NCBI GenBank assembly: GCA_031260245.1 | Contig: JAIRKH010000056.1 | Coordinates: 874 to 64,873 of the forward strand | DNA length: 64,000 bases | Source of the DNA: Treponema sp. | Lineage (GTDB): Bacteria; Spirochaetota; Spirochaetia; Treponematales; Breznakiellaceae | Direction: 5' to 3' | Part shown: piece by piece, positions 20,244 through 38,432 of the stretch | How positions within the stretch are numbered: the first letter of the stretch is position 1 | Layout: each line of letters starts with the position of its first letter | Position numbers and translations under genes: made by a program | Notes under the pieces: generated by a model | What the model was told of the DNA's origin: nothing | Seen by the model: only the letters and a program-made list of their open reading frames with translations | The model's database searches: none

Positions 20244-20275
20244 TCTATGAGAGAGTTTGTTAAAACTTCTTGATA

Positions 20276-20349: not shown

Positions 20350-20463
20350 ATGAAAGTCCGAACAAGCGTAAAACCTATCTGCGACAAATGTAAGGTTATC
20401 AAGCGACGGGGCGTTATCCGCATCGTTTGCGAGAATCCCAAGCATAAGCAGAGGCAAGGTTAG
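20350..20463 (+). CDS. rpmJ: 50S ribosomal protein L36
   Basis: Absent from the ORF track (<60 aa). ATG at 20350 after AAGGAG; [37 protein letters not shown]; stop at 20461-20463. Confidence 0.95.
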
Positions 20464-20471
20464 GAGTAAAT

Positions 20472-20840: not shown

Positions 20841-20849
20841 GAGGGATAA

Positions 20850-21236: not shown

Positions 21237-21247
21237 GGGAGAAAAAC

Positions 21248-21883
21248 ATGGCGCGATATACAGGACCGGTTTGCCGTTTGTGCAGAACAGAACAGAAAAA
21301 ACTCATGCTTAAAGGAAACAAGTGCAAGAGTGATAAGTGTCCCATCAATAAGAAGCGAGCGGCTCCGGGTAAGGACCCGAAAATTCGGGCTGGGAAGCGG
21401 TCGGATTACGGCGTTCAGCTCCGCGAAAAGCAGAAACTCAAGAGGATCTATGGAATGCAGGAAAAACAGTTCAAGCTGTTTTTCGAGCGCGCTTTGCGTA
21501 TGCCTGGTATCACGGGGGAGAATTTGTTCGCTCTCTTGGAACGGCGGCTTGATAATGTGGTTTACCGACTGCGTTTCGCGACGAGCCGTAGTCAGGCGCG
21601 GCAAATCGTGCTTCATGGGCATATCACAGTGAACGGCAGGCGGGTAAATGTGCCTTCTTACCTTGTGAAGAGCGAAGATGAAATAGCCATTGGCGAGACA
21701 AGCAAGAATCTGGCGCTTGTTAAGGACGCGCTGAAAGAATCCGGCAAATCTGGAGTGATGCCCTGGCTCAATTTGGAAGCGGACGCCATGAAGGGTACAT
21801 TCCTCGCGGTCCCGCGGCGGATTGACCTCACCGATTTGGCGGATATCAAAGAACAGATGATTGTTGAATTCTATTCAAAGTAG
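21248..21883 (+). CDS. rpsD: 30S ribosomal protein S4
   Basis: ATG at 21248; MARYTGPVCRLCR... Confidence 0.95.
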   Translation: MARYTGPVCRLCRTEQKKLMLKGNKCKSDKCPINKKRAAPGKDPKIRAGKRSDYGVQLREKQKLKRIYGMQEKQFKLFFERALRMPGITGENLFALLERRLDNVVYRLRFATSRSQARQIVLHGHITVNGRRVNVPSYLVKSEDEIAIGETSKNLALVKDALKESGKSGVMPWLNLEADAMKGTFLAVPRRIDLTDLADIKEQMIVEFYSK

Positions 21884-21951
21884 TCTGTTTCGGACAAGAC
21901 AAGTCCCATAAGGATGCGTTTTACCTGAACAAAAAGGAGTTTCAATCAATA

Positions 21952-22980
21952 ATGGCCCGTAAAAACCTTTTACAAGGATTTAAACACCCTAAGAGGGTTA
22001 CTTTTGAACATGGTGAGTCTCGGCAGGATTATGGAAAGTTTATCGTTGCCCCGTTTGAACCGGGCTATGGTACAACGATAGGCAACACCTTACGCAGGAT
22101 TCTGCTTTCTTCCATACAAGGAAACGCTATTACGGCTATCAAGATAACATCCTATGGCAAAGATGGAACGCCTCACGCTATTTCCAGCGAGTTTGAGAAC
22201 ATACCTAATATCATAGAGGATACGCTTGAGGTTATCAATAACCTGAAACAAATTCGGTTTAAACTCCCAGACGACCAGGAATCCTGTACGTTTTTGTATG
22301 AGTGGTCTGGAAATCGTGAAATCAGAAGCGATGATTTTGCTAAAGAGGGGTTGTTAGAGGTTTTAAGCGGCGGCCAACATATCTTGACGATGATGGAAGA
22401 CGCTCATCTTGAGTTTGAGGCGCAAATAGATTTGGGGCGGGGTTATATGCCATCTGAAATAATTGAACAAAATGTCGAGGTTATCGGTACTATTCCCATA
22501 GACGCCATGTTTTCGCCGGTGAAGAAAGTGAAGTATGTTGTAGAACCTGTGCGCGTGGGGCAGAGGAGCGACTATGACAAGCTGACGCTTGAAATATGGA
22601 CGGACGGCACCATCAAACCGGACGATGCGCTTGCCGAGGCGGGCAAAATTGCAAAAGAGCATTTCTCGGTTTTCATCAACTTCGACGAAAATGGTTTGCT
22701 TTCGGACAATTCAGGAGAAGCCGGCGACGACGCCATTCGTTCCGTCCTTGAGACGAGTATAGAAGAATTAGAACTATCGGTGCGGTCATACAATTGCCTT
22801 AAAGGGGCGGACATTAAGACCATCGGCGAATTGATTCAAAAAAACGAAGACGACTTGAACAAAGCTCGTAATTTTGGGAGAAAGTCCCTTCAAGAAATAA
22901 TTGACAAGCTCAAAGAATGGAATTTGAGTCTCGGAACTACCGATATCTCGAGTTTAAAAATCAAAGCAAAGGAAGTTTGA
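21952..22980 (+). CDS. rpoA: DNA-directed RNA polymerase subunit alpha
   Basis: 342 aa. The C-terminal-domain motif ...[23 protein letters not shown]... is present. Confidence 0.96.
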
Positions 22981-22981
22981 A

Positions 22982-23416
22982 ATGAAACACAGACGGGGTT
23001 TTAACCCTCTTGAAATGATGTCGGCGCACCGTAAAGCCACGCGCCGTAATATGATTACGTCTCTATTCAAATATGAGAGAATCAGAACTACGAAGCCCAA
23101 GGCGCTGGAAATCCGTCGGAGCGCCGAAAAATTGATAACTCGTGCAAAAGTCGATTCTGTCCACAACCGGCGCATCGCATCGAGCCGTCTCTTTGACGAA
23201 GGCGTTGTCGCCAAGTTATTCAACGACATCGCCCCGCGTATGAAGGAACGGAAGGGAGGGTACACACGCGTCCTCAAGCTCGGTTTGAGAGGAGGAGACG
23301 CGGCGGAAATCGTCATGATGGAACTGGTTGATTTCAAACTGGACACGGAAGGCTCGAAAAAGAAGACCGAAAAAAAGACGGCGAAAAAAGAAAAAGCCGT
23401 AGGTAATAAAAAATAA
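22982..23416 (+). CDS. rplQ: 50S ribosomal protein L17 (Lys-rich C-terminal tail)
   Basis: 144 aa; [24 protein letters not shown]... Confidence 0.95.
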
Positions 23417-23424
23417 GGAGGCGA

Positions 23425-23607
23425 ATGATGTCGAAGGCGCATAGAGGCAAGGGGATAAAAGACTTGCCCTCTCATGGAAGGGCAGTGTGTCCGCTCTGCA
23501 ACAGAACAGCGAAAGTTCTTTACGAGGAAAAAACCGCGGACAAATCCGTCAAGGTCTGCAAGATATGTAAAGCGGCCGTCAAACACGGTAAAAAAAACCT
23601 GCCGTAG
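23425..23607 (+). CDS. small basic zinc-ribbon protein (CxxC...CxxC), function unknown
   Basis: 60 aa with SD AAGGAGG. Starts 8 nt after the rplQ stop. Contains CPLCNRT...CKICK. No family recognised. Confidence 0.55.
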   Translation: MMSKAHRGKGIKDLPSHGRAVCPLCNRTAKVLYEEKTADKSVKVCKICKAAVKHGKKNLP

Positions 23608-23782
23608 CGTCGACAAGAGGAAATTATGACTATCAAAAACGATGTTTCTTATTTTTATGAATAGTTCTTGACGCCATAAAAATAGATCTCCATAGCGGAA
23701 GAGAATTAGGAAAAACGATAAATGTATATAAAGATAACCGTATATAGAAATCACAGGGGCGTGAATGTCTTAAATTATAAGC

Positions 23783-23804
23783 GGGGGGAGGTCCCCCCCC
23801 CCCC
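23783..23804. repeat. G6-AGGT-C12 homopolymer hairpin / slippage-prone tract
   Basis: Read directly: GGGGGG at 23783-23788 and C12 at 23793-23804, 73 nt upstream of the first ATG of the operon. Confidence 0.9.
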
Positions 23805-23820
23805 ATTGTATTTCCCTGGG

Positions 23821-23844
23821 TGTGAACGTCTTTGTGAACGTCTT
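23821..23844 (+). repeat. perfect tandem 12-mer TGTGAACGTCTT x2 (third, imperfect copy CGTGAATGTCTT at 23760-23771)
   Basis: Read directly. The three copies bracket the G6/C12 tract. Confidence 0.9.
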
Positions 23845-23876: not shown

Positions 23877-25820
23877 ATGTTTAGTTTACAAGATGTCAAG
23901 TGCGATACCGAAAAAAAATCACGAATTGAGCCTCTTTTGAGATTTCAAGCTTTTGATGAGAAAAATAAGCCGCTTGAGAGTATCCGCTTTGAGAATAACA
24001 CGCTCTATTTTATCATAGGCGAATCGGGCGTTGGAAAATCGACTCTGTTGAGTTTTTTGACGTCTCCCTTTTCAGAAGATCCTATAAAAAACGGCGCGAT
24101 ACATTTTGACGCTGTTGCCCTTCCATTAAAAAAAGAAGAAAACAATACAATAAAAATTGAAAACTCAACCGCAAAATCTAAAAAGCTTGAAAAGGCGTAT
24201 TTCGCCTATCTGAGAAATACCCTCGCCTTCATTCCGCAGATGACGGATTCTTTTCATCCGTCGATTCCCATCCTTGAACAGTTGAAAGAAACTTTTGAGG
24301 CGGCGGCTATCGCCCCTTCCCCCAGTAAATTCCAACGCTTACAGAATTGGGTTAAGAAAGTCGACGAACCTGTAGACTCTAAACCGTTCAGGGATTTGGT
24401 TAAAAGACTCGGTGAAAGAGCGGGATTTACGCGCGTCGAGGTATCCGAAGATCTTTCAACCCTTAAAATTTGGGATAAAAAAGAGTACGAAGACAAAGAA
24501 GGCGAGCCTTGTACCATCGTTGATATAGGCGGCGCGGAGGGGCGGACCGTCGTTCTTGAAGGCGAATTATCCAGCGGACAATTACAGCGGCTTCTTGTTT
24601 TAAAGGCGCTCATCCAATTTGAGACCGCGAATGTTTTGTTCGGAGATGAATTCCTGGTGAACTTTTCCTTTCTCGAAGGAAACAAGGTGCTGGATGGTCT
24701 CATTGAAGCGTTTAAGGAGAGAAAAGAAACCGGGCAGGCGACCGCGGCATTCGTCTTTCACGACTTGTCCTATCCGTGTATCCGTCAGCAAAAAGACGAC
24801 GTCAACGCCCGCGTCATGTTGCTTGAAGAAACGCCGGAAAGTAAAGCCGCAAGCCAGAATAAAACCATCGCGGTTAGGACCATTCCTTTGCGGGACTTTT
24901 GGTCCGAAGACCTGCCACAGGACAGTCCTTTTTTTCGATTCAGACAGAGTTATCAGTCTTTGTCCGGTGATTATATAATCAATCCAAAAAATCAACCCCC
25001 TTCGGCGCCTGTTTTTGAAAAAAACATATACGAGTCCTACACGTATCCCGGAAAGACGGAATGCGTCTACGAAAACCTACATTTTGAAATCAAAGAAAAT
25101 CGTTTCATTATCCTGACCGGTTTTTCCGGATGTGGAAAAAGCACATTCTGCAAACAGTTAATTGAAACCATACCGCAAGAAGAAAAGTGGAAATACCGCT
25201 ATTTCCCTTCTCGTACTCGTGAAGCCCTGTCTTTTGGGTCTCAGGTACGCGTTGAAGAAGACTTGCGTACCATCTATGGGTTCTACAACCATATAAAAGA
25301 CGTCCGCGATGAGAAAGAGAGAATCAGCCGCCATTTCCGCGATGTGGAATTGTTTCAAAAATTTGAGGCGTTTTTACAAAAACCTATATTCTCGCTTTCC
25401 GGCGGAGAATTACAACGCTATTGGTTCGCTCGAATCACTCTACTCGAAGATATACCTCCCGAAAAAAAACCGAAACTGCTCGTATTTGACGAAAGCGTCT
25501 CTAGCCTCGACTGCGTGACAAAAGATATTCTGATTAAGTTCGTCGTTGAGAGACTTTTTGTAGAAGAGAACTTCGCCGTTTTATTTATTACCCATGACTT
25601 GCGCGATATAGGCGTAATCTGTCAAAATTTACACAATGTCAAAAGAACGGACTTGTTTGAACATTATGAATTATTCAATAAAAAACTGTATCGCGTTAAA
25701 ACTCCCTCTTTTAAGCAATATTGGGACAATATTTTAGATAATAAATTTAACGACTACGAGGAATCAGGAACTGGTACGGTTTACCATTTTAAGCTAAAGG
25801 AGGTAATACGGAAACCATGA
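23877..25820 (+). CDS. fused two-NBD ABC ATPase, OppD-OppF-like
   Basis: ATG at 23877 follows AAAGGA. NBD1 has GESGVGKST, Q-loop-like FIPQMTDSFHP, LSSGQLQR, LFGDEF and FVFHDL. NBD2 has GFSGCGKST, LSGGELQR, LLVFDESVSSLD and FITHDL. Confidence 0.8.
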   Translation: MFSLQDVKCDTEKKSRIEPLLRFQAFDEKNKPLESIRFENNTLYFIIGESGVGKSTLLSFLTSPFSEDPIKNGAIHFDAVALPLKKEENNTIKIENSTAKSKKLEKAYFAYLRNTLAFIPQMTDSFHPSIPILEQLKETFEAAAIAPSPSKFQRLQNWVKKVDEPVDSKPFRDLVKRLGERAGFTRVEVSEDLSTLKIWDKKEYEDKEGEPCTIVDIGGAEGRTVVLEGELSSGQLQRLLVLKALIQFETANVLFGDEFLVNFSFLEGNKVLDGLIEAFKERKETGQATAAFVFHDLSYPCIRQQKDDVNARVMLLEETPESKAASQNKTIAVRTIPLRDFWSEDLPQDSPFFRFRQSYQSLSGDYIINPKNQPPSAPVFEKNIYESYTYPGKTECVYENLHFEIKENRFIILTGFSGCGKSTFCKQLIETIPQEEKWKYRYFPSRTREALSFGSQVRVEEDLRTIYGFYNHIKDVRDEKERISRHFRDVELFQKFEAFLQKPIFSLSGGELQRYWFARITLLEDIPPEKKPKLLVFDESVSSLDCVTKDILIKFVVERLFVEENFAVLFITHDLRDIGVICQNLHNVKRTDLFEHYELFNKKLYRVKTPSFKQYWDNILDNKFNDYEESGTGTVYHFKLKEVIRKP

Positions 25821-27562
25821 GAAAAATATTTACGGCGGTTCTTATTTTAATATGCGCGATTCTGCCGGCGCAACAGACTTTCGTCAAATTTGAGGAAATA
25901 AAAGCTCCTGCTTTTCAAGAATTAACGGACGAGCTTAACAGAGCTATTCAAGCCGCTCTGAAAAAAGCGTTTGGAGATATATTTATAGACATAACCAAAT
26001 ATGTCCCGCGTGAGAATAAAGTGTATTACTTTTCGTTCACGCTCTCTCAAGAGAGGACAACGGATTTTATACTCAAGATGATTATCAAACCTCGTAATGA
26101 AGAAAATGAATTTTTGTTTGACGGTATATCGTTTGATTTTGAGCGGAAAGATTCTCTGATTTCTTTTCTTCAAAAACAGTTAATCGGTGAATATATGCTT
26201 GATAACGGAGAGTTTAAAGAAGATGCGGTGCGGCAAAGGATAAATTCCATGAATTTGGAGAGAGGCGCGGTAAAAATCGCGGTAACGATTACGCCGAAAT
26301 TCGTCTTCCCCGACCAAATTTCTGCATGGAACACGCTGGATACGGCAGTTGGCGTATCGGGTTTTGAAATAAAGGAAAGCTACAACGGCGGTGAATTCGT
26401 AGTTGCGCCGTACTCTTATAACGTTGAAAAAGAGGAATTCAGCGGCGATTATTCAAGCTTTTCGCCTGAAATACAAGACTACCTTGACTCGCTCAAACCG
26501 CAAATCGCCGTTTTTGAAAACGGAGAATGGGCGCCGAAAGGCGATAAGGTTTCTCTCAAAGCGGGAATAGATGAGGAGCGGGAATATCGAACGCGTTATT
26601 CTTTTGTTCCCGAGACAGGAATAAAAGGAGATTATACTTTTGCGCTCGCGCCGCCAGTAGAAAAAACCTACACGGTCCGCCCTTTGCCTGAATACCGATT
26701 TTTCGCCGATAAAGTAACGGTTGATGAGAATGGAATATCCGTCGCCTATAGCGATAGCGATATTCTTATCTACGATATTGACGCTTTCGGGATAGGAGGC
26801 GACGCTCCGCGTGGAAGAATCCGTGAAAAATTGATTCTGTATATCCTCATAAATAAGGATATGGCGAAATTTATGAATGAGAATAGGGGGAATATTGATT
26901 TTTCCGAATCAAAGCAATTTGATATGACCGTTTCGTTGATAGAGAGTAGAAATTCATACGTACGAGAGGCGATAGCCGATAACAGCGGCGCAAGTCGAGA
27001 AGATCTACTCACGGAACTTAAGTCTGTGATGAATGACGGAATTGCGGTAGAATTAGGCGCGGAAGACATAGATGTGGAGAAAGCTGATTGGTTCATAGCG
27101 TTGACCTTTCGCCATGACGCCATTCCCGATAACGCTGTTGTCGCGTTAAAGGACGTTCGTTCCGAAAACGCGGGTATGTCTAAAGAAACCATTGACGGAA
27201 TCAGCGCTATCTTTTCTACAATGACGGAGATGGAGAAAGAATGGGTCAACATGGCGAAAGTGTTGTGTTATTTTGGGAATCGAGCAAAGACTTCGGAATT
27301 CTTGAATAAGTATGAAGAGGCGAATAAGTCGTTGCCTCCGAAAGTTAAGCGGGATATTGCGGTTCTACGGAACTGGAGTCCCATAGGACCGCGGGGCGCG
27401 CTATTAACTATTCGGAAAAAAAGCGAAGAGGAGCGCCCTGATTTCCGTTTTTCCAGAGGGAGCGTTACTGGCATGAAGATGCGTGAATATATGGAATCCG
27501 GAAAAGTCTCAGATAAAGAGAAAAAAGATTTGTATATAGTATTTTTTGGAGAAGAAATATGA
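25817..27562 (+). CDS. exported protein, no recognisable domain
   Basis: 581 aa. The start overlaps the ATPase stop (ATGA), with AAGGAGG upstream. N-terminal signal MRKIFTAVLILICAILPAQQ. Confidence 0.7.
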   Translation: MRKIFTAVLILICAILPAQQTFVKFEEIKAPAFQELTDELNRAIQAALKKAFGDIFIDITKYVPRENKVYYFSFTLSQERTTDFILKMIIKPRNEENEFLFDGISFDFERKDSLISFLQKQLIGEYMLDNGEFKEDAVRQRINSMNLERGAVKIAVTITPKFVFPDQISAWNTLDTAVGVSGFEIKESYNGGEFVVAPYSYNVEKEEFSGDYSSFSPEIQDYLDSLKPQIAVFENGEWAPKGDKVSLKAGIDEEREYRTRYSFVPETGIKGDYTFALAPPVEKTYTVRPLPEYRFFADKVTVDENGISVAYSDSDILIYDIDAFGIGGDAPRGRIREKLILYILINKDMAKFMNENRGNIDFSESKQFDMTVSLIESRNSYVREAIADNSGASREDLLTELKSVMNDGIAVELGAEDIDVEKADWFIALTFRHDAIPDNAVVALKDVRSENAGMSKETIDGISAIFSTMTEMEKEWVNMAKVLCYFGNRAKTSEFLNKYEEANKSLPPKVKRDIAVLRNWSPIGPRGALLTIRKKSEEERPDFRFSRGSVTGMKMREYMESGKVSDKEKKDLYIVFFGEEI

Positions 27563-28794
27563 CAGGCAAACAGGACGCTTTTAGTAGAGGCGGGACTTCA
27601 AAAAGAAACATGAGAAAAATAGTCGCCATAGGTATTATGTGCGCGGCGCTTATTATGTGTGAAAAAAAGTACACCGTTGCGTTCAACGCCGAGGGCGGAA
27701 CAGCCTGCGCATCTCAAGAGGTGAACGCGGGCGTGGCAGCGGTACTACCAGCGACAACACAGAACGATTATATCTTTAACGGCTGGTATACAAGCGACGG
27801 TACTAAAGCGGGCGATGCGGGCGCGTATTACACGCCGTCCAGTAGCGTTACCTTGTACGCGCGATGGACCGATAATTCCTCCGCGGTTTCTCCTACTGTT
27901 TACACCGTTGCGTTCAACGCCGAGGGCGGAACAGCCTGCGCGTCCAAAGAGGTGAACGCGGGCGCGACAGCGATACTACCAGCGACAACACGGAGCGGCT
28001 ATACCTTTAACGGCTGGTATACGAGCGGCGGTACCAGAGCGGGCGATGCGGGCGCGTCTTACGCGCCGTCCAGTAGCGTTACCCTGTACGCGCGATGGCA
28101 GGAGTCGACTCCAACAGTACCGATTTCCTTTGTGATACGCGACCAGACGACCGGTCCGATTCCCTATGGACGGATTCTGGTTGGAACGGTAACGGAGGCG
28201 GGGGCTTCCGGCGTCATTAACGGCGAAAGCGAGATGAATAAATTGATCAGAAACGCCAGAGAAAGCATTGGCGAGTTGTCGCGTCCTATTATCGGAGGAA
28301 ACCTTATTAAAGGAGGAATAGGGCTTAACGACACGCTGTTCTTTCTTTTAGTGGAACCCCCCGACAACAGAAGCGGATACGTACAGTTTGTGACGGTACC
28401 GGCTGTCCGCCCTTCGTCTCCCATACCGGTTGAATTCAATCTACGAAACAAGGAGGTTACAGTCGAGTTTTCCATTGATTATAACGGCGATAAAGATACG
28501 TTTCAAAACAACGCCGACGTTGACGTAACGTTTTTTTACCGACCTAATGACAATGAGGGAAACAACGACACTGGGAATTTCAAAACATATTCCACAAAGG
28601 TTCGACTTCAAGGGAATAATAAAGGCTTCATAAAATTGAACAGTCGCGAGTTAGAGATTTCGCCTTGGACGAGGATTGAATACCGAATCAAAGTAACCGG
28701 CAAAAAAATTTCAGGACTGCCTTTCGTTTCGGGTGAAAAGCTGCAGGTCTTCAACGAGATAAAGTCTGTGGAACTTTATTTAGGAGAAAGTTAG
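27559..28794 (+). CDS. lipoprotein with two Listeria-Bacteroides (Flg_new / InlB B-repeat) domains
   Basis: 411 aa with an ATGA overlap. Signal MRKIVAIGIMCAALIMC. There are two copies of YTVAFNAEGGTACAS.EVNAG....LPATT...Y.FNGWYTS.GT.AGDAGA.Y.PSSSVTLYARW. Confidence 0.75.
   Translation: MTGKQDAFSRGGTSKRNMRKIVAIGIMCAALIMCEKKYTVAFNAEGGTACASQEVNAGVAAVLPATTQNDYIFNGWYTSDGTKAGDAGAYYTPSSSVTLYARWTDNSSAVSPTVYTVAFNAEGGTACASKEVNAGATAILPATTRSGYTFNGWYTSGGTRAGDAGASYAPSSSVTLYARWQESTPTVPISFVIRDQTTGPIPYGRILVGTVTEAGASGVINGESEMNKLIRNARESIGELSRPIIGGNLIKGGIGLNDTLFFLLVEPPDNRSGYVQFVTVPAVRPSSPIPVEFNLRNKEVTVEFSIDYNGDKDTFQNNADVDVTFFYRPNDNEGNNDTGNFKTYSTKVRLQGNNKGFIKLNSRELEISPWTRIEYRIKVTGKKISGLPFVSGEKLQVFNEIKSVELYLGES
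27670..28098 (+). repeat. 231-bp tandem duplication (2 copies, second truncated), in frame, encoding the two Flg_new domains
   Basis: Units start at 27670 and 27901 with an identical 41-nt opening tacaccgttgcgttcaacgccgagggcggaacagcctgcgc. The remainder is highly similar by eye. Confidence 0.9.
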
Positions 28795-28806
28795 AAAAGG
28801 TAAATT

Positions 28807-30885
28807 ATGCATAAGAAATCAATCGTCTTTCTTTTTTTATTCCCCGTCATAGCGCCCCTATTCGCTGAAAGCGTTTCTTATACGCCGCGAGTCGCGGCGT
28901 CTGCCAGTGGAAACAATATCTACGCCGTATTCGTTTACAACGGCGTGCATGACGGAAAACCGGGCGGAATTACGCTATGGCGGAAAAACGGCGCCCCGCG
29001 CGTCAAGGAATTCGCGCTTGCGTCCTGTGAATTCTATGGGTTCTTCTTCTTGGAAAACTATCTATTCAGGTATAATTACTTGAGCAGCGTCCTGGATTAC
29101 TACGACGTTGAAGAACTTTTCAAGTTAAATCCCACGAATAATCTTTTTGAAGTCAAAGACGTTCTCAGTAAGCGTAAACAACAATTTAAAGACGTTAAAC
29201 AGGTCATTACGGCTGACGGTTCCGTCTATTTTTTGACAGGAAACATAGTGAAACGCCTCGTCGATATTAAAGACGGTAAAACAAAAGATATAGCGCCGCC
29301 GAAAGGGAAAAAGATTGATTTCTTCGCCGTCATAGAACAGAGCGCAAAATGGGAAGAAGAGAACAAGGCTTTCTCTGAGTTTTTAAATGACGTCAAAAGC
29401 GCGTTTACCGCAATAGACGCTCTCAAAAAAAATAGACAAATTGACCGACAAATGAAAGACGTTTTTGGCTTTACCCTCGACAGCAACAATGAAGATGTTC
29501 TTGACAAAATCAAGAATAAAGCTCAAGAGGTAAAGAGAAAATATGCGGATTACTTCGAGGAAACGGCTCTGCTTGGGAGGGACATTCCCACGATAGAGGG
29601 TAGCCCGACAACGGAGTCCGCCGTAGCGAAGCTACGTACCGCGTATGACAGTAAGGTTAAAGAGAGAGATGCGAGAGAAGGCGAATATAAGACCATAGCC
29701 AGTGAAATTCTTGCGAACTATACCGGCGAATTAAGCAATTTGTCTAAAACGGAGGAACTTAAAAAGAACCAGACGAAAAGGAAAATAAGCGCCTTAAATC
29801 TTTTTAAACAAAAAAAAGAGGAAATATGGCGGGGAGAAGTTGACCGTATCGTTGAAACCAAAACGCAGGGAACGCCTTATTCCTCAATAAAGACGCTTGA
29901 CGCTCTTACAAAAGCAAATGGGATATATGGGAAATATAGTAAATCTACAACTGATTATGACAAATTGCTTATGGATTTTGACTTCATTAACAACGTGGAA
30001 AAAGATATGGCGAAAGACTTGAACGGCTTATACAAGAAGAATAAAGATAACGTAATAATCAAAGCTGGTTTGGAAAAAACGAGAGACCTTCTTTTAGACA
30101 AAAAAAAATTTACCGGGATTTATACCGAAATCAAGAGTAAAATAGAGTCCAATGAAGACTTAAAACCATATATTAATACCAATTTATCTTTTAAGCAAGA
30201 CGCGGCGGAAACCGAATTTTATAATATTCTAACCCCTTATTTGCAGGCGGAAGCGGATGCGATACTAGCGGAGCGAGCAGTTTTACGGGCATACGCCGCC
30301 ATGTTTAAGACAGAGCTTGAGCTTGGAAAAAACAGACCCGCGGAATCGTCCCCAATCATCTATATAGCGAAAGAAAGGTTTGACGAAATAACCGTATCTA
30401 TGGAAAGAGAAACCCCGTCGATGGATATACCGCTGAAGTCGCAGTGGTTTGACGACTATCTACCGATGTATTCGAAGTTCTTCCCATTCGGGCAGGTTAT
30501 TTCGCCGGTTCTGTTTAAGCCGCGGGAAAAGAAAATGATTTCGACCGGTGATTTCGGTTTTAGGTCAGATGACGAATTTGCCCTTTTCCGGCAAGGAGAC
30601 GATGTGTATGCTGTCAAGAAGAGCTGGACTGATGATGAGTATGACGTCTTCAATAGTCAAAGTTTTACGCGTCTGTTTTCAAAAAGCGCGATTCTCGGAA
30701 CGCGGGAACGGTGGAACGGCATTCTCTACACAACGTTAGACGCAATAGTATGCGCTGGTGAAGACGACATTGTAAACATAAAAGACGGTCGGGACGTAAA
30801 TATTCTTTCCGTCAAAGCAGGCGGGAACACAATCCTGTCTATCCGTAAAGACGGCGACAGATTTAATTTAGACTCAATTAACTAA
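28807..30885 (+). CDS. exported protein, no recognisable domain (central K/E-rich helical region)
   Basis: 692 aa; signal MHKKSIVFLFLFPVIAPLFAES. Confidence 0.7.
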   Translation: MHKKSIVFLFLFPVIAPLFAESVSYTPRVAASASGNNIYAVFVYNGVHDGKPGGITLWRKNGAPRVKEFALASCEFYGFFFLENYLFRYNYLSSVLDYYDVEELFKLNPTNNLFEVKDVLSKRKQQFKDVKQVITADGSVYFLTGNIVKRLVDIKDGKTKDIAPPKGKKIDFFAVIEQSAKWEEENKAFSEFLNDVKSAFTAIDALKKNRQIDRQMKDVFGFTLDSNNEDVLDKIKNKAQEVKRKYADYFEETALLGRDIPTIEGSPTTESAVAKLRTAYDSKVKERDAREGEYKTIASEILANYTGELSNLSKTEELKKNQTKRKISALNLFKQKKEEIWRGEVDRIVETKTQGTPYSSIKTLDALTKANGIYGKYSKSTTDYDKLLMDFDFINNVEKDMAKDLNGLYKKNKDNVIIKAGLEKTRDLLLDKKKFTGIYTEIKSKIESNEDLKPYINTNLSFKQDAAETEFYNILTPYLQAEADAILAERAVLRAYAAMFKTELELGKNRPAESSPIIYIAKERFDEITVSMERETPSMDIPLKSQWFDDYLPMYSKFFPFGQVISPVLFKPREKKMISTGDFGFRSDDEFALFRQGDDVYAVKKSWTDDEYDVFNSQSFTRLFSKSAILGTRERWNGILYTTLDAIVCAGEDDIVNIKDGRDVNILSVKAGGNTILSIRKDGDRFNLDSIN

Positions 30886-30899
30886 AGGAGGGAATTAAC

Positions 30900-31964
30900 A
30901 TGAAGAACGTATTTTTTGTTGTATTCTTCTTGCTGTTTTTATGCTCCGCGTTTGCGGAGACGGAAATTAAAGAGTTTTTTGACGAGGTTTTTCAATTTGG
31001 AGTAGATATTAACAATTTAACGCCCGCGAATCGCTCTGAATTCTATGAAACAACAGCGAAAAAGATACTCGGCGAAAAAATCAGCGGCGTCAAACCAGAA
31101 AGCAGGACGAAAGGAATGCCGATAGTCTCTTTTTTAGACGTTGTGGTGAACGATTTATCCTCAAAGCAATGGGATAAAATAAAAAAGATGCAAGGGTTTG
31201 AAGAATTTATAAAATCGTTTCAGCTTACAATGCCCAGAAGTCCCAATACCAAGGACTTAGATAAAAAATATGACGATAGCTATAAACGGTGGCATACCGC
31301 CGTTACAGAGAAGGAATATTCTATCGTTAAGGCTGTATGGGACGACATTAAAGCTTTCCTTGTCAGAGACGATTCCAAGAACCGTACGGCTTTTTATTCC
31401 GCGTTGGATGGAAAGGGAGATTATAAGAAATTACTTCAAGAAGAATTAGGTAATCGGAAAGAAAGATATAACGAAAGATATAACGATTGGCTTGCATCTG
31501 CCGACAAGAAAGTGAAAGCCGCAGGCAAAGCGAAAGATTATGACGAATTTGTCAGGAAATACAATGAATTAAAGGACTATAAGAACAAAGAATACGCGGA
31601 GCTTATAGAATCTGCGGAACCAAAATTAGCGGAATTTGTCAATAAATATAAAGACAGGAAGAGCGACCCCTCTGTCAACGAAGTGTTTCTAGCGCTCTTT
31701 AAAGCGGCTGATAAATCGTTCGAAGAACTAGACAAAGATATAGGAAAGAAGCCGGAGTTTAACGAGTCCGCGGAAGAAAAAGATATAAAAGATAAATGTT
31801 GGGAGGTTGCTCGAACAGAAGACGCCTATCTCGAAATGGAAAAAACGTTACTCCGCTACGTCTATGCGGGAATATACAAGAAAATTGACAAGAAAATTTA
31901 CGAGGAAATCAAAGAGCAAAAAAAAAATGACGAAGAAAGGAAAAGCCAAAAAGGAGGCGAATAA
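30900..31964 (+). CDS. exported K/E/D-rich (coiled-coil-like) protein
   Basis: 354 aa; SD AAAGGAGGG; signal MKNVFFVVFFLLFLCSAFAET. Confidence 0.7.
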   Translation: MKNVFFVVFFLLFLCSAFAETEIKEFFDEVFQFGVDINNLTPANRSEFYETTAKKILGEKISGVKPESRTKGMPIVSFLDVVVNDLSSKQWDKIKKMQGFEEFIKSFQLTMPRSPNTKDLDKKYDDSYKRWHTAVTEKEYSIVKAVWDDIKAFLVRDDSKNRTAFYSALDGKGDYKKLLQEELGNRKERYNERYNDWLASADKKVKAAGKAKDYDEFVRKYNELKDYKNKEYAELIESAEPKLAEFVNKYKDRKSDPSVNEVFLALFKAADKSFEELDKDIGKKPEFNESAEEKDIKDKCWEVARTEDAYLEMEKTLLRYVYAGIYKKIDKKIYEEIKEQKKNDEERKSQKGGE

Positions 31965-34043
31965 ATGAAAGAAAAAATTATTGCGGGCGTATTTTGTTTT
32001 GCGGCGCTGTGCGGGTATGCGCTTAATATTAGCATACCGGTAAAGAACGACTTTTCGCTCGACCCCGTCATCGGCATAACCGGCGAGGAAAGCGACTCGG
32101 ATTCGCGTTTCGTCCAAAGGATGATATTCTCGCCCTTGGTCATGCCTACAACGGACCCGCTTATTGACCCGAACTTCAGCTACGACATATCGGTATCCAT
32201 GATTGACAAAGGTGAATATTTCTCTGAAAAGAGTAAGCAGTTCGCCGAAATATACAACCTCCAAGCGCCTTTCGAAGATCCCACGCGGATTTATCGCGCG
32301 CAGCTACGAGACGATATGAGCTTCAAATGCGGCGACTCTAAATACAACGGCAAGGTTACGGCGGAGGATGTCGTGTTTTCCTACAGAGTCGCGCAAACAA
32401 CCTTGAGTATCAAGACGAGACAAGGCGCCTATGATAATTACACCAACGCGATACTCAGGGCCCAGTTAGCGGACATGGAGCAAATAAAATATATAAACGA
32501 GAGAACCATTGAGTTCGTGTTCAAGACTCCGCGGAACACCAAGGACTTCATCAATTTTCTCGTCTACACCCCGATTCTTTCGGTGAATCAGCTCCGCGGC
32601 GCAAAAGAACAGGAGAGAAATTCTTACATTTTCGGTAAAACTGGCGACAGTAAAGATTACGACATACGGCAGTACAAGACCGTTTACGATTTTGAGACTT
32701 TGCCTGCAAGTTACGGTCAGTTTTATGTGTCTGATAAAATAGTGTATTCCTCAAATAAAAAAGGGGCGCCGCTTAAAACCGGCGCGGTCAAATTAAGAAG
32801 AAATAGAGACTGGAACCTCAACAAAGATTATGCCAAGGACGGACGCTCCTCTAAAGCTATTGAGACGTGGGAGACGATTCATAAGGATTACCAAAACGAC
32901 AGTTCCATAGTCGTTAGCAAGACGAATCAGAGTATCCTCGTAACAAACGTCGTAGGCACTTCAACTTTACTGGTAAACTATCCATTGACCGTGAATGATT
33001 ATATGTCTAATGTCAATTTCTTTAATATGAGCGGCAACTATAGGAAAATAGCCGTTGAACAGATGTTTATTTCCTACAAGCTCTATGGGCTTTTGTATTC
33101 ATCAAGCGCCCAAAACAAATATCTGTTTGATACAACCGAAGTCAGGACTTTCTTCAGAGAATGTCTCAATCGTTCCGCTCTCATGGAAAGTCTAAAGGTA
33201 GATCCTGCCATCCTCGAAAATAGACCGGCCGCGTATAAGGAATTGATAGAAGATAAGGTGGAGATTGTTCCGCTGTACTACCCGTTCTTCGCGGGTAAGG
33301 AACCGGAAGCATCGTCCCAAGATAAACTCGACAGACTTTACCGAGAGCTCCGCGAGAAGGACGTCAGTTACCAGTCTGATATTAATCTTTCTAAAGACAT
33401 AAAGAACTTTGAGACCCTGACCGGCGACCGCCAAGCCCGCCAAGCCGCCATACGGGGTTATCTAGCGGGAGAATTACCCGAAGCGATGCTAAAACATCTT
33501 GCCCAAAAACTGCCGTCCCAGATAAAAGAAGGCGTCTGGAACGTCAGGATACTCTACGACGATAACGATAAGATAGCGAAGCTCATTTGCGATAGATATG
33601 TGATTAATATAAATAAAGTGGGGCAATATTTAGAAAGGCATGGTTTTAAGACAAGAATCAAGGCGGAACCTGTAATATTATCCAAAACTAAGAAAGGAAG
33701 AATCTCCGACGTCGACAAAAAAGCGTTTGATATAGCCGTCTACGGGTGGAATTACCGGTTTGACTTCTTGGGCGAATTTATGAGCTTCCTCGATAAAAAC
33801 GCGGGCGGTTTCATATCTTCGGACCTTTACGCGGATTACGACGAATTTCTCAAAGAAATAGGCAAGAAATCGGTACCCGATAGGATGTTTGAAATAGCGG
33901 ACAAGATAGTCAGAAGTGAAATAATATCGACGCTCTTCGCTGTAAAAAATTACCTACTATACGACAAAGAGAAAGCCGAAGTCCCGACGCTGAAAGATCT
34001 CGGTCCGCCTGCCATTATGTATCCATATTATTGGGGAAAGTGA
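31965..34043 (+). CDS. oversized ABC substrate-binding protein, family 5 (OppA/DppA-like)
   Basis: 692 aa. The ATG abuts the preceding stop. Signal MKEKIIAGVFCFAALCG. Family-5 pattern SLDP...RMIFSPLV... and YRAQLRDDMSFKCGD....GKVTAEDVVFSYRV. Confidence 0.65.
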   Translation: MKEKIIAGVFCFAALCGYALNISIPVKNDFSLDPVIGITGEESDSDSRFVQRMIFSPLVMPTTDPLIDPNFSYDISVSMIDKGEYFSEKSKQFAEIYNLQAPFEDPTRIYRAQLRDDMSFKCGDSKYNGKVTAEDVVFSYRVAQTTLSIKTRQGAYDNYTNAILRAQLADMEQIKYINERTIEFVFKTPRNTKDFINFLVYTPILSVNQLRGAKEQERNSYIFGKTGDSKDYDIRQYKTVYDFETLPASYGQFYVSDKIVYSSNKKGAPLKTGAVKLRRNRDWNLNKDYAKDGRSSKAIETWETIHKDYQNDSSIVVSKTNQSILVTNVVGTSTLLVNYPLTVNDYMSNVNFFNMSGNYRKIAVEQMFISYKLYGLLYSSSAQNKYLFDTTEVRTFFRECLNRSALMESLKVDPAILENRPAAYKELIEDKVEIVPLYYPFFAGKEPEASSQDKLDRLYRELREKDVSYQSDINLSKDIKNFETLTGDRQARQAAIRGYLAGELPEAMLKHLAQKLPSQIKEGVWNVRILYDDNDKIAKLICDRYVININKVGQYLERHGFKTRIKAEPVILSKTKKGRISDVDKKAFDIAVYGWNYRFDFLGEFMSFLDKNAGGFISSDLYADYDEFLKEIGKKSVPDRMFEIADKIVRSEIISTLFAVKNYLLYDKEKAEVPTLKDLGPPAIMYPYYWGK

Positions 34044-34069
34044 CGGGGGTGTTCTTAAAGGATTACATT

Positions 34070-36397
34070 ATGTTGATTGTTAAGAGAATCGTCAAGAATT
34101 TTTTTATGTACCTTTCGTTTCTCGTTGTTATTGGTATTCTGCTCTACATAAAAGACTCGGAATTTTCAGTTTTTTCAATGCAGACGCAGATAATATTCGA
34201 GTCTATGACGAGCTTCTTTTTTATACTTGTGGCGATGCTCGTCTACCTCTGTTTTCTTTTGACCATAGGCGGCGGGATAGCCTTAAGCAGTCAGCGGTAT
34301 TTCTCAAACACGGAACTGCCGAAAATGGGTCTGTATGCGGTGAGCATCGTTCCGCCTGTTGTCGTATCGCGTTGTCTTATCGCCGGATTCCGCGACCAAA
34401 CAGTCGTCCTCGTTACAGGCTATCTCGTCTTAAGTTTCGTGTTTCACGCGGCGGTAAAGAAAAGATTCGCCATGAGACTGTGGAATTTGCTCAAGAGAAA
34501 GGCGCTTGTTTTTGCCGCGGACTTGATATGCGAAATCCTGCTCTTTATCGCTGTTTTATTTATAGTAAGTTGTACTCCCTTAATGTCTCTGCCTTTTCTT
34601 CGTTTCAATATAGACCATACTTCGGGCTGGTACGCGCGATTGTTTTTCATCGTTATTTTTAACAGCGTAAATTATCTCAGTATAGAATACATCGTTTCGA
34701 TTTTGAATATTGAAATAAAAAAATCTCATGTAAAGGCTTATTTCTTATACCACGAAAGCGCGCTCCGTCGACTGTGGTATATTGTGAGAACGAGCCTTCC
34801 GATGATTCTCAAAAAAATAAAGATGTTTCTCTCGTGGCTTATTTCGTTCATTATTCTATTTGAGATGGACAACAGCGTTTTTGACTCGATAGGACAACGG
34901 ATTAACATACAAGCCGAAAATCAGCAACTCAACAATATTTTCCCGGTATTTATCGTCATATATCTTCTACTATTTATTATAAACACGGTATTTGATATTA
35001 TTATTGACAAAAATTCTCTTGAAAAAGATTCTCAAAAACAAGAAAATGAAAAGAATGTTAAATTTCACGGTTCAAGCAATATTCTCAAAACAATAAGCGC
35101 GTTGGTTGCGGAGCGATTCTTTAATAAGAAAACTATTGGCGGAAAGATAACCGCCGCAATATTTACCGCATTTGTCGCGGCTCTGCTTTGGGGCTGTTTC
35201 TATTACGCGCCCTTCTATGTTTTCTTACAGCATTATGGGTATGACACGAGTCGGAATTTTACGGTACGCGATGTCGCGGACCAGGCTTTTATGACCGTAA
35301 CGACGACGGAGGATATGGACAAGAAGCTCTGCGTCAGGGAGAAAAAGGGCTTATGGAATATTTATTCCGTTGCGGAATTCTCTATAGTTACCTTTGACGG
35401 GGAATGTATGAAAGTCATACCGACCATGCATACAAACGTTAATAATCCCGATAATCCTCGTCCGAACATCCGCGTCATACAAGGCGGTAAGGTCGAGGAA
35501 GGAGGCGTTCATCTCGTACAATCAACGCTTAAAAACGTAACTTTCGGTAACGCCGTTGCGGTTCCAAGCATTTTTGATTCGTTTATTCCTTTCATTCCTT
35601 TTGACCTTGAAAGAAGCTCTGGTTCGGGTCCAGACAATCCGAATAAGTTATTTTTTCCTGTATTTGTTTTTTATCTATTTTATCTATGCTTGTTAATCGC
35701 TGTGGTTTATCTGGTGGTTGTCTTTGTTTACGCGCTGATTCTTCACGGCAAAGAATACAAGGCAGCCACTGCCCTTGGAAACTGGCTAAAAAGTTTTATT
35801 TTTGCGACTCCGTTTGTCATTGCGCTTTCGGTTTTAAGAACGTTTTTCCCGGACGGCAACATGGTTTCCCACATAGAAACGTTAGCCGCGTTTCCGCCTG
35901 TTTCAAATAGTCTTTTTATCAATAGTATTTTTTCATACTGTTGTTTTATTGCAGTTCTCCTGCTGTACATTCTGCCCGGAATGATAGAGGATTTATCTAG
36001 TTCCATAAAAGAACTGGTACATTCTTCTGAAATAAGTTATCTGAACAATATCGGAATGAATAAGCAGGACATATTCAACGTTATAACGCGGAAATACGGC
36101 GTTCAAAATATCAAGCGTATTTTCGTGGAAAATTTTCTGTTTATCTGCGTATTGCAATTTTTTACCGCATATTGTCTTCAGCTTAACCAGTTTTTGGATT
36201 ATTTTGGGACCGGTTCGGTTTTAAGTTTTGAGAACGTGTTTTCCAAAGTGATGAGAGCTGTGACGCCGGAACTGATAGTCTTCATGTCAAATATCGGAAA
36301 AATTACCGAGGGCGCTAAGATCGCCGTTCTGCATTGCGTCTTGATTCTGGCGATGTATGGAAGTATCTATTTCTTGATGAAAAAGGAGAAGAGATGA
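34070..36397 (+). CDS. fused OppB-OppC-like ABC permease (polytopic, 775 aa)
   Basis: ATG at 34070 follows AAAGGA. Many hydrophobic segments. Two degenerate EAA-loop-like regions: KKSHVKAYFLYHESALRRLWYIVRTSLPMIL... and SEISYLNNIGMNKQDIFNVITRKYGVQNIKRIFVEN...LDYFG. A large soluble loop separates the halves, as in the OppC N-terminus. Confidence 0.5.
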   Translation: MLIVKRIVKNFFMYLSFLVVIGILLYIKDSEFSVFSMQTQIIFESMTSFFFILVAMLVYLCFLLTIGGGIALSSQRYFSNTELPKMGLYAVSIVPPVVVSRCLIAGFRDQTVVLVTGYLVLSFVFHAAVKKRFAMRLWNLLKRKALVFAADLICEILLFIAVLFIVSCTPLMSLPFLRFNIDHTSGWYARLFFIVIFNSVNYLSIEYIVSILNIEIKKSHVKAYFLYHESALRRLWYIVRTSLPMILKKIKMFLSWLISFIILFEMDNSVFDSIGQRINIQAENQQLNNIFPVFIVIYLLLFIINTVFDIIIDKNSLEKDSQKQENEKNVKFHGSSNILKTISALVAERFFNKKTIGGKITAAIFTAFVAALLWGCFYYAPFYVFLQHYGYDTSRNFTVRDVADQAFMTVTTTEDMDKKLCVREKKGLWNIYSVAEFSIVTFDGECMKVIPTMHTNVNNPDNPRPNIRVIQGGKVEEGGVHLVQSTLKNVTFGNAVAVPSIFDSFIPFIPFDLERSSGSGPDNPNKLFFPVFVFYLFYLCLLIAVVYLVVVFVYALILHGKEYKAATALGNWLKSFIFATPFVIALSVLRTFFPDGNMVSHIETLAAFPPVSNSLFINSIFSYCCFIAVLLLYILPGMIEDLSSSIKELVHSSEISYLNNIGMNKQDIFNVITRKYGVQNIKRIFVENFLFICVLQFFTAYCLQLNQFLDYFGTGSVLSFENVFSKVMRAVTPELIVFMSNIGKITEGAKIAVLHCVLILAMYGSIYFLMKKEKR

Positions 36398-38259
36398 AAA
36401 AGGTAGTATTTATTTTTCTTATGTCCACACTGTCTGTTTTCGCACAAGACGCCGAGAAAGCGGCTGAGGACGCGGCAAAAAACGCCGTGAATGAGATGAA
36501 CGAGAGGCTGAAAAATAGACCGACTCTTGCTATCTGGGAGATAAAAGTAGAACCCGAAGGCGCTATTGACGTCAATGATAAAGGGTTTTTATCGTCTATC
36601 AGAGGAAGGTTATACGATAATTGGATAAATTATTCGGATTATACCGTTATTGACCTCCAAAATTTAGAAGGCATAAGGGGCGCGCAAGAACTGGCGGGTT
36701 CGGGCTATTTTTCAGACGATGATTTTGTAAGTAAGGGAAATATCAAAAATTTTGAGTACGTCTTATTTCCAACAATCACCAGAATCGACGACGCTCAATT
36801 TATAATAGATTTTCGTCTTAATACCGCTGCCGAAGGGGTGTCGCGCACGTCTTTCAGAAAGACGACGACCCTAGAAGAATTAAAATCAGGAAGCGTCGTA
36901 AACGAGGGGACGTTGGACCTCTTTGAAAAATTGAAAATAACGCTCAGCGAAGACGAGAAGAAAAAGCTTATGGAGACGACCGCAGCGTTCGCGCGGAGAA
37001 TCAGCAACGAGGCGAAGGAAGCCAACGACGATGTAAAAGCCGCTTTTTATGGATATGTCGCCGCCGCCTCATCAAGACAAGAACTATCCAAAAATGGAAC
37101 AGATTCTGAAATATTAAGAAATATTCAGGAAAGAGAAGATTGGTTCAATAAATTTAAATCTTGCGCGAGTATATTTAATGACATCGCCCCGTTTGAAATA
37201 GTCTATGACTCGAAACTCTCGTGGGATGGGAAAATAAGCGGCGGGAAAGAAAATGGGCGTCTGAATTTAAAGGCGCTGATAATGCTGTCGCCGTCTCCCG
37301 CCCACTTCAACTTGCTGGACCTTTTACTCTCAGATTTAGAGAAAACGAAACATCGTTCGCCGTGGGGATTCGATGGATGGCCGTTTTATGATATGGACAA
37401 GGAATACCTTGTTTTAGACGGGAAGAGGCAATTTGAGTATGATATATCCATTGAAATCATAAATGAAAAGGGGAAAAGCGTCGCGAGGGAAAAAATCAAC
37501 CTTAAAAACAATATACAATTTAAGCGCGGCGATAAAACTATCAGCGCTCCGAAAGAAGAAATTAAGGAGGTTTTATTTAAAGACATAAATACATCCGATG
37601 TGACCAATTCGCTCTTCGTTAAAATTACCATGGTAAACGGCGAATATACAGAAAATATTCTGGCTTCGGGTAAAATAAATATTAAAAGGGATGCGTTATT
37701 AACCGATAGGGAACAGAGCAGACGTGGATTAAAGCTCGATGCAAATAAAAAGGGAGAAATAATCGAATATACAGGCGAGACTAAAAACGTCATTATACCG
37801 AGAATATTAAACGATTCGCCCGTTACCGTAGTACGAGAAGGGGCGTTTGAGAAGAAACAGCTAACAAGCGTCGATATTCCGGACGGTATAAAGATTGAAA
37901 AGCGGGCTTTTTACGACAACCGCCTTACCTCAGTCGTCGTTCCGCCTGTCGCAACCATAGAGGATTGGACTTTTGCGAAAAACAACCTTGTCTCGGTAAC
38001 AATCTCTTCGGGCGTGGAGACTATCGGCGCATGGGCGTTTGCGCGAAATAGACTGACAAAGATTAACATTCCCAGTAGCGTTAAAGTCGTCAAACAGAAC
38101 GCTTTCGCGCAAAACAGACTCTCAAGTATAACTATTTACAATAATGTCGCTATTGAAAAGAACGCGTTCGACGATGATTTTGCAAAATTTTATCAACAGA
38201 ATTACGATAGTAAAGCGGGGACGTACATTTTGGAAAACAATTCTTGGACGTTGCGGTAG
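36394..38259 (+). CDS. exported protein with a BspA-type leucine-rich-repeat C-terminus and a CsgG/LpoB-like N-terminal domain
   Basis: ATG at 36394 overlaps the permease stop (ATGA) after AAAGGAG. Signal MKKVVFIFLMSTLSVFAQD. C-terminal repeats ...REGAFEKKQLTSVDIPDGIKIEKRAFYDNRLTSVVVP...IGAWAFARNRLTKINIPSSV... Confidence 0.7.
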   Translation: MKKVVFIFLMSTLSVFAQDAEKAAEDAAKNAVNEMNERLKNRPTLAIWEIKVEPEGAIDVNDKGFLSSIRGRLYDNWINYSDYTVIDLQNLEGIRGAQELAGSGYFSDDDFVSKGNIKNFEYVLFPTITRIDDAQFIIDFRLNTAAEGVSRTSFRKTTTLEELKSGSVVNEGTLDLFEKLKITLSEDEKKKLMETTAAFARRISNEAKEANDDVKAAFYGYVAAASSRQELSKNGTDSEILRNIQEREDWFNKFKSCASIFNDIAPFEIVYDSKLSWDGKISGGKENGRLNLKALIMLSPSPAHFNLLDLLLSDLEKTKHRSPWGFDGWPFYDMDKEYLVLDGKRQFEYDISIEIINEKGKSVAREKINLKNNIQFKRGDKTISAPKEEIKEVLFKDINTSDVTNSLFVKITMVNGEYTENILASGKINIKRDALLTDREQSRRGLKLDANKKGEIIEYTGETKNVIIPRILNDSPVTVVREGAFEKKQLTSVDIPDGIKIEKRAFYDNRLTSVVVPPVATIEDWTFAKNNLVSVTISSGVETIGAWAFARNRLTKINIPSSVKVVKQNAFAQNRLSSITIYNNVAIEKNAFDDDFAKFYQQNYDSKAGTYILENNSWTLR

Positions 38260-38359: not shown

Positions 38360-38432
38360 TGCCGCCAAAGGGAATTGAACCCTTGCCACAAGGATTTTCA
38401 GTCCTTTGCTCTACCAACTGAGCTACAGCGGC
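38360..38432 (-). tRNA. tRNA-Phe (anticodon GAA), no encoded CCA
   Basis: A 73-nt cloverleaf folded by hand: acceptor GCCGCTG/TGGCGGC, D-arm GCTC-AGTTGGTA-GAGC, anticodon arm AAGGA-CTGAAAA-TCCTT, T-arm AAGGG-TTCAATT-CCCTT. Confidence 0.9.

Follow-up and report, generated by a model that had tools for sequence, protein, structure and literature searches.

A divergent ABC importer-like operon with interleaved exported proteins in an uncultured Treponema

The Opp/Dpp/Nik importers (TC 3.A.1.5) are binding-protein-dependent members of the ATP-binding cassette (ABC) transporters, with substrate-binding proteins of the cluster C, or family-5, fold. MalFGK2 is another type I importer, in which the P2 periplasmic domain of MalF docks the binding protein. 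Repeats of the BspA leucine-rich (LRR) type and of the Listeria-Bacteroides type (Flg_new) are found in surface proteins of oral and gut bacteria. Operons that join the tubulin-like GTPase FtsZl1 to vWA proteins were proposed in 2010 to form a membrane-remodelling system (Makarova and Koonin, PMC2875224), and a reviewer of that paper drew attention to links with binding proteins and suggested roles in transport or signalling. The literature search found neither functional work on FtsZl1 later than the 2010 description nor any mention of an ABC module as its partner. Here we describe an eight-gene block (g1 to g8; Table 1) in a 64,000-nucleotide (nt) stretch of DNA, called the window, from a metagenome-assembled genome (MAG) of an uncultured Treponema. 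We take the locus to encode a transporter of a known kind, in an extremely divergent form that has not been described before.

The block is read as encoding a binding-protein-dependent type I ABC importer that has diverged strongly, together with envelope partners that capture or deliver a bulky ligand, a reading to which we give about an even chance of being correct. An earlier note, made from the letters of the window, had seen an ABC importer interleaved with exported proteins and had remarked that the architecture was not one it recognized; no description of it was found in the literature. The importer core and the interleaved exported proteins were both recovered here, although the window proteins themselves fail the hidden Markov model (HMM) searches for the binding protein (PF00496) and the permease (PF00528).

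Proposed importer core of the operon

An ABC-importer core is indicated by a fused ATPase with two nucleotide-binding domains (NBDs; g1), a family-5-type binding protein (g6) and a putative fused two-domain permease (g7), a trio that is kept in independent loci. The gene layout supports g1 to g8 as one operon-like unit, as the earlier note had held. Recomputed coordinates matched its account of eight plus-strand open reading frames (ORFs) at every junction: g1/g2, g2/g3 and g7/g8 share 4-nt ATGA overlaps, g5 and g6 abut (31964/31965), and the remaining gaps are 12, 14 and 26 nt. Shine-Dalgarno-like GGAG or AGGA sequences precede all eight start codons. The order of ATPase, exported proteins, binding protein and permease is retained in independent metagenomic loci, and thus the arrangement is not due to chance.

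Fourteen related loci (L002 to L015, the window sequence being L001) were obtained from metagenomes and MAGs; most are partial, and all examples come from uncultured organisms and short contigs. The habitat sampled may, as a guess, be the termite gut. The proteins of L006 are those of L005. Scans of the genome and metagenome collections with a g7 profile yielded one new locus each. The binding-protein gene lies directly upstream of the permease gene wherever both are visible (13 of 13 loci), and the ATPase gene comes first in each of the six loci in which it can be seen (the window, L005, L007, L009, L014 and L015). Between the ATPase and binding-protein genes are two to four genes for exported proteins.

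The ATPase g1 is matched by ABC_tran (PF00005) in two stretches (E 4e-21). Motifs were read from an alignment with four orthologs and, save for the Q-loop of NBD2, are intact, which bears out the fused two-NBD ATPase of the earlier note. NBD1 has the Walker A motif GESGVGKST, Q-loop IPQ, signature LSSGQ, Walker B motif FGDEF and H-switch HDLS; NBD2 has the Walker A motif GFSGCGKST, signature LSGGE, Walker B motif FDES, D-loop SSLD and H-switch THDL. In NBD1, some 100 residues are inserted between the Q-loop and the signature (residues ~130-235; window 24000-24600). This insertion is kept in outline in all g1 orthologs, and the window protein is about 19 residues longer there. The g1 profile matches the single-chain two-NBD ATPases DppD (548 amino acids (aa)) and Rv1281c (612 aa) of Mycobacterium tuberculosis, and as these are already present in solved Opp/Dpp complexes, the two-NBD fusion is not new. 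The label 'Opp-type', in contrast, did not hold for the ATPase. NikE and NikD rank first in NCBIfam but score 89 and 76 bits where the cut-offs exceed 300, and in a PDB profile search CmpD, NrtD and ABCB4 rank above M. tuberculosis DppD. The oligo_HPY domain (PF08352), for which the earlier note had proposed a search, was not detected on g1 among the best 25 of its 49 Pfam matches (E ≤ 1.3e-3).

The binding protein g6 is predicted to belong to family 5, from its orthologs and its modelled fold. The earlier family-5 assignment stood by this route and not on the window protein directly, as PF00496 (SBP_bac_5) was missed on g6, which had no Pfam match and showed a weak match to SapA (E 1.3e-4). 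However, four of eight members of the g6 family match PF00496 (best E 1.4e-11), and one of them (P0005) is 43% identical to g6 over its full length, from which homology to family 5 follows. When the AlphaFold2 (AF2) model of g6 was compared with PDB folds, 151 matches were obtained at E ≤ 1e-3; the best was NikA (E 5e-11, probability 1.00), and the best 50 of the 151 were nearly all family-5 binding proteins (NikA, OppA, AliC/D, AppA, CntA, SapA and DppA). The N-terminus of g6 is lipobox-like as judged by eye. It is the binding-protein family alone that suggests peptide or metallophore-like ligands. A plasmid origin was rejected, as a tblastn search of 72,556 plasmids with g6 and g7 gave no match.

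Hydropathy of g7 gives 14 transmembrane (TM) helices, eight in the N-terminal half and six in the C-terminal half. The N-terminal half has an EAA-like loop at about residues 215-245. The C-terminal half opens with a TM helix (360-378), followed by a beta-rich periplasmic domain (~385-535) and five further TM helices, with a second EAA-like loop at ~652-680. In the AF2 model (predicted local distance difference test (pLDDT) 76, predicted TM-score (pTM) 0.78), short helices at 219-227 and 653-660 lie between long TM helices, at the positions of EAA coupling helices. All Foldseek matches listed with a probability of at least 0.2 were type I importer chains, nearly all of them permease subunits. 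The best was OppBCDF (8z21_A; probability 0.90, TM-score normalized to the target (TMt) 0.49), followed by DppBCDF (0.80); further neighbours listed include M. tuberculosis Dpp/Opp, PstSCAB, CmpBCD and OpuA. Low-probability matches, for example to acyl-CoA dehydrogenases, had TM-scores near 0.1. The sole PDB sequence match of g7 is CmpB (E 2.4), and the aligned helix comes directly after the EAA-like loop of the N-terminal half, which is the equivalent place. On the basis of the topology, the two EAA-like loops and the sub-threshold Foldseek matches, g7 is taken with moderate confidence to be a fused type I importer permease. When 1.84 billion representatives were searched exhaustively with HMMER, the g7 family came to 33 proteins, none of which is recognizable from length or count as a canonical permease. 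In L004, which was binned with Bacteroidales, the permease homolog is split into two adjacent ORFs (264-1028 and 1032-2558) by a frameshift, through pseudogene formation or by a sequencing error.

MalFGK2 offers a parallel for the periplasmic domain of g7, as it too is a type I permease with a large folded periplasmic domain between TM helices, and MalF (3pv0_F) is among the fold matches of g7. MalF has eight helices, like the N-terminal half of g7. Unlike MalF, g7 carries its insert between helices 1 and 2 of the second domain and shows no sequence similarity; the class of binding protein also differs, and docking on g7 is putative. The best fold neighbours of g7 remain the Opp/Dpp permease chains, and with its family-5 fold in g6, the single-chain two-NBD ATPase and NikE/NikD as top NCBIfam matches the core is nearest to the Opp/Dpp/Nik importers. 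It departs from them in that g7 and the window g6 lack a Pfam-level match, both predicted TM domains are fused in one chain with a periplasmic beta insert of 150 residues, g6 is about 150-200 residues longer than its solved homologs of ~500 aa, no oligo_HPY-type tail was detected on g1 within the scope given above, g1 is not specifically Opp-like, and exported-protein genes part the ATPase gene from the binding-protein gene.

Exported partner proteins and a proposed mechanism

Signal-peptide-like or lipobox-like N-termini were seen by eye on g2, g3, g4, g5, g6 and g8, in agreement with the earlier claim that genes for exported proteins are interleaved with those of the importer. Whether the accessory proteins occur together with the trio elsewhere, as the earlier note had wished to see checked, depends on the protein: g2, the C-terminal domain of g3 and g4 have homologs in the closer loci, g8 in the two nearest loci only and g5 in none detectably. 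The five are not kept together as a set.

For the g2 protein, whose signal peptide (MRKIFTAVLILICAILPAQQ) was recognized by eye, searches of Pfam, NCBIfam, PADLOC and PDB sequences were negative, and a word-index homolog search of 5.8 billion proteins returned only g2 itself. Homologs were nevertheless present at the matching position in L005 (E 2e-22) and L014 (E 4e-25). In g3, Pfam supports the earlier Listeria-Bacteroides claim with two Flg_new repeats (E 4e-30), and a lipobox-like LIMC was seen by eye. Its C-terminal domain has homologs in a 452-aa protein of L005 (E 2e-7) and a 370-aa protein of L014 (E 7e-13), from both of which Flg_new is absent.

For g4 there was no Pfam or PDB match. 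In phmmer it matched a partial protein of L003 (E 6e-12), and hhalign related it to a family represented by an 849-aa protein of L005 and an 830-aa protein of L014 (probability 84%, E 7.5e-6), which is in turn related to a 793-aa protein of L008 (probability 95%). It is placed as a diverged member of this family, whose genes lie just 5' of the binding-protein gene. No Pfam or NCBIfam family was matched by g5 and no homolog was found among the related loci; L003 and L014 encode proteins of 402 and 343 aa, respectively, at this position, for which no relationship to g5 could be demonstrated. It may be a scaffold or else lineage-specific filler.

The earlier LRR claim was also upheld, as g8 has LRR_5 (PF13306) at residues 480-594 (E 5e-23), with a signal peptide seen by eye. 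Orthologs of g8 lie 3' of the permease gene in L002 and L003 only. In other loci this position is taken by unrelated proteins of 461-635 aa, by proteins of ~100 aa, some of them lipobox-like, or by both. NCBIfam weakly ties g3 and g8 to the LRR adhesin HupY/LrrG and to internalins. LRR_5 and Flg_new are what these two proteins share with BspA-type and Listeria-Bacteroides repeat surface proteins. They differ from such proteins in that the repeats are appended to other conserved parts (the C-terminal domain of g3 and the N-terminal 450 aa of g8), are missing from the L005 and L014 homologs and are encoded inside a transporter operon.

Pfam gave no match for ten homologs of the accessory proteins. 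PADLOC gave none for g2 to g8 or for the FtsZl1 and vWA proteins of L007, and only generic ABC/AAA matches for g1. A defence-system origin was rejected, since these matches reflect nothing other than the generic ATPase similarity of g1. The accessory proteins of the more distant loci showed only weak hints of relationship to those of the window in hhalign (for the small lipoproteins E 8e-4, probability 25%).

In an importer of this kind, ligand would be captured in the periplasm by g6, for which the periplasmic domain of g7 would serve as docking site, much as the P2 loop of MalF does for its binding protein. The EAA-like helices of g7 would engage g1, and import would be powered by ATP binding and hydrolysis at g1. 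Dedicated partners in the periplasm or outer membrane (g2, g4 and the C-terminal domain of g3) may capture, process or hand over a bulky ligand derived from the envelope or from a host. Flg_new in g3 and the LRR in g8 would have been added in the window lineage and would place part of the system at the cell surface.

FtsZl1 linkage and alternative explanations

Of the five loci whose upstream region is visible, four (L005, L007, L009 and L015) encode FtsZl1 directly upstream of the module, the window being the exception. These FtsZl1 proteins are ~900 aa long, with PF13809 (Tubulin_2) and the signature GGTGCG. Between FtsZl1 and the ATPase, L005, L007 and L009 encode a vWA protein that crosses the membrane several times and keeps its DxSxS motif intact; in L015 it is reduced to a 129-aa N-terminal remnant, and L007 has an additional membrane protein with an SH3 domain. 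In L007 and L009 the FtsZl1, vWA and ATPase genes overlap or adjoin directly, and in L005 the junctions between them are short. When the relatives' proteins (FtsZl1 from L005 and L007) were used in tblastn, neither FtsZl1 nor vWA was found in the 64 kb of the window. Four related loci thus open with FtsZl1, three with vWA as well, and the ABC module comes next; their neighbours are mostly lineage-specific membrane or exported proteins, as in the operons set out in the available portion of PMC2875224. The likeness ends in several respects. The window is without FtsZl1 and vWA, the partners named in that portion of the paper (a divergent GTPase, protein kinases and OmpA-family proteins) are not present here, and a module of two-NBD ATPase, binding protein and fused permease is not among the partners that it reports.

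The joining of the module to an FtsZl1 operon in four loci is not expected of a plain nutrient importer, and it is one of a number of observations that weigh against reading the block as an importer. In g1 the Q-loop of NBD2 is degenerate (FPS), although it is the only degenerate motif, and the protein cannot be placed in the Opp/Dpp/Nik subfamily. The AF2 model of g6 is of low confidence (pLDDT 57) and its family profile matched no PDB sequence at E ≤ 0.01, so that its ligand pocket is putative. For g7, the better Foldseek matches have probabilities of 0.63-0.90 and TMt of 0.40-0.50, no Foldseek match at all reaches E ≤ 1e-3, and an hhalign E of 0.16 between its N- and C-terminal halves means that no similarity, and thus no internal duplication, is detectable. 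The topology, EAA-like loops and fold neighbours of g7 speak for the polytopic permease of the earlier note, but all 18 family members (g7 and 17 relatives) lack any Pfam match, and BPD_transp_1 (PF00528) is not matched in any of them at E ≤ 1.

The upstream genes of the relatives suggest a different role, in which the ABC-like trio is the energy or transmission module of an FtsZl1/vWA machine that spans the envelope and builds, moves or remodels an envelope or surface structure. ATP hydrolysis at g1 would then be transmitted via g7 and g6 to the exported partners, and the window would be a derivative that has lost FtsZl1 and vWA or encodes them elsewhere. The position and close junctions of FtsZl1 and vWA in the relatives argue for such a machine, as do the membrane-remodelling proposal and its reviewer's binding-protein links (PMC2875224). 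The exported accessory proteins are always present and evolve fast, and g6 and g7 are too divergent for Pfam, which is also consistent with it. However, the window has a ribosomal/rpoA operon in the place of FtsZl1 and vWA, the fold neighbours of g7 are importer permeases, and a binding protein combined with a type I fold is the classical signature of import. Known mechanotransmitting ABC systems have a different transmembrane fold, and the role of FtsZl1 itself is putative. Such a module is the main rival explanation, possible but somewhat unlikely. We hold unlikely the further proposal that the trio and its exported partners make up an undescribed envelope-spanning machine, ancestrally driven or positioned by FtsZl1 and vWA, in which the importer fold was recruited for remodelling or signalling and of which the window is an FtsZl1-less derivative that gained the LRR and Flg_new repeats.

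The block might instead be a juxtaposition of two or more units that do not belong together, with genes for surface proteins or adhesins (Flg_new, LRR and K/E-rich) piled up beside an orphan ABC transporter in a low-GC island by a tRNA gene. The lack of any homolog of g5, the restriction of g8 to the two closest loci, the g3 homologs without Flg_new and the absence of demonstrable homology between the accessory proteins of distant loci and those of the window would all fit, and the block has a GC content below that of its flanks and ends at tRNA-Phe. Against this, stop and start codons overlap or abut throughout the block, homologs of g2, the g3 C-terminal domain and g4 hold their position in L005, L014 and L008, and no strong terminator is conspicuous inside the operon, with 30 terminator-like sites counted in the region against 17.4 expected from shuffles. 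Moreover, genes for exported proteins part the ATPase from the binding protein and permease in every locus, and any insertion would therefore be ancient and retained. This makes juxtaposition improbable. Lowest in probability, and highly doubtful, is an outward-directed module that releases co-encoded lipoproteins and surface proteins or localizes them to the outer membrane, in a Lol-like sorting with g6 as periplasmic carrier. Lipobox-like N-termini on g3, on g6 and on small proteins of L005, L014 and L015 point in this direction, and the sorting of surface lipoproteins in spirochetes is incompletely understood, but there is no similarity to LolC/D/E or other exporter folds and family-5 binding proteins are not known outside importers and sensors.

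Genomic setting and significance

The operon has a GC content of 42.7%, compared with 49.8% and 50.6% in its flanks. On its 5' side it follows the end of a ribosomal-protein/rpoA operon (SecY, S13, S11, S4 and RpoA), and downstream of g8 are tRNA-Phe on the minus strand and then topA. GC contents of 21-47% were found in the related loci, of which one was binned with Bacteroidales and two others are in Treponema MAGs. As the low-GC block ends beside tRNA-Phe and the related loci vary in this way, horizontal spread of the module is suggested. In L009, a nitrogenase cluster (AnfO, a NifH-like protein, two P-II and four Oxidored_nitro; 14751-22334) adjoins the module, consistent with a nitrogen-fixing host. 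A minus-strand ORF in the window (22954-23754, 266 aa) was treated as spurious, as it has no Pfam match and overlaps the 144-aa plus-strand ORF.

A candidate control region precedes g1. GTGAAYGTCTT occurs in three exact copies (23761, 23822 and 23834) within 116 nt 5' of g1 and nowhere else in the 64 kb, where 0.06 copies were expected; these repeats may be sites for a regulator of the operon. Between them is a G6AGGTC12 hairpin (23783-23805), whose C12 run (23793-23804), 73 nt before the start of g1, is the sole G/C homopolymer of at least 9 nt in the window. Possible explanations are termination of the preceding operon, slipped-strand phase variation and an assembly artefact. Poly-G tracts upstream of the Treponema pallidum tpr genes have been reported as slipped-strand phase-variation tracts. 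TTGACA is at 23848, upstream of g1.

Table 1. Features of the eight-gene block, its surroundings and the related loci (positions in the window unless another locus is named)
Feature	Sequence	Position	Strand	Length (aa)	Description and basis
g1-g8 block	Window	23877-38259	+		Eight same-strand ORFs, locus tags LBE74_049xx (uncultured Treponema MAG)
g1	Window	23877-25820	+	647	Cytoplasmic ABC ATPase, two NBDs in one chain (Pfam ABC_tran)
g2	Window	25817-27562	+	581	Exported protein (homologs in closer loci)
g3	Window	27559-28794	+	411	Probable lipoprotein, two Flg_new repeats and beta-rich C-terminal domain, ~190-411 (Pfam)
g4	Window	28807-30885	+	692	Exported protein, beta-rich ends and K/E-rich, helical-looking middle by eye (phmmer, hhalign)
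g5	Window	30900-31964	+	354	Exported protein, 27% Lys+Glu (composition)
g6	Window	31965-34043	+	692	Predicted lipoprotein-type substrate-binding protein, very divergent family-5 (cluster C) (ortholog Pfam, fold search)
g7	Window	34070-36397	+	775	Polytopic inner-membrane protein, read as two TM domains of a type I importer in one chain (hydropathy, AF2, Foldseek)
g8	Window	36394-38259	+	621	Exported protein, N-terminal region of ~450 aa and C-terminal BspA-type LRR (Pfam)
Candidate upstream control region	Window	23761-23844	+		Repeats around a hairpin; putative function
144-aa ORF	Window	22982-23416	+	144	rplQ position, after rpoA (ORF list)
59-aa ORF	Window	23428-23607		59	Cys-rich, two Cys-x2-Cys pairs, zinc-ribbon-like; between 144-aa ORF and operon
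tRNA-Phe	Window	38360-38432	-		Right-hand edge of low-GC block (ARAGORN and Rfam)
FtsZl1-side region	L005	1-2107
FtsZl1-side region	L007	1-4515
FtsZl1-side region	L009	1-1958
FtsZl1-side region	L015	1-1920
Window-like group	L002, L003, L004, L005/L006, L008, L012, L014				g2, g3 C-terminal domain and g4 homologs in closer loci; g8 in L002/L003; g5 in none
More distant group	L007, L009, L010, L011, L013, L015				Own set: proteins of ~457-576, ~703-714 and ~547-635 aa and one of ~105 aa

The locus indicates that an ABC importer core can diverge beyond curated HMMs for both its permease and its binding protein. The recurrent linkage to FtsZl1 in the relatives, translationally coupled and usually together with vWA, provides a concrete and testable set of partners for FtsZl1. 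As the transporter is always accompanied by exported partners encoded between the ATPase and binding-protein genes, the system points to an envelope complex that goes beyond the textbook importer of five subunits.

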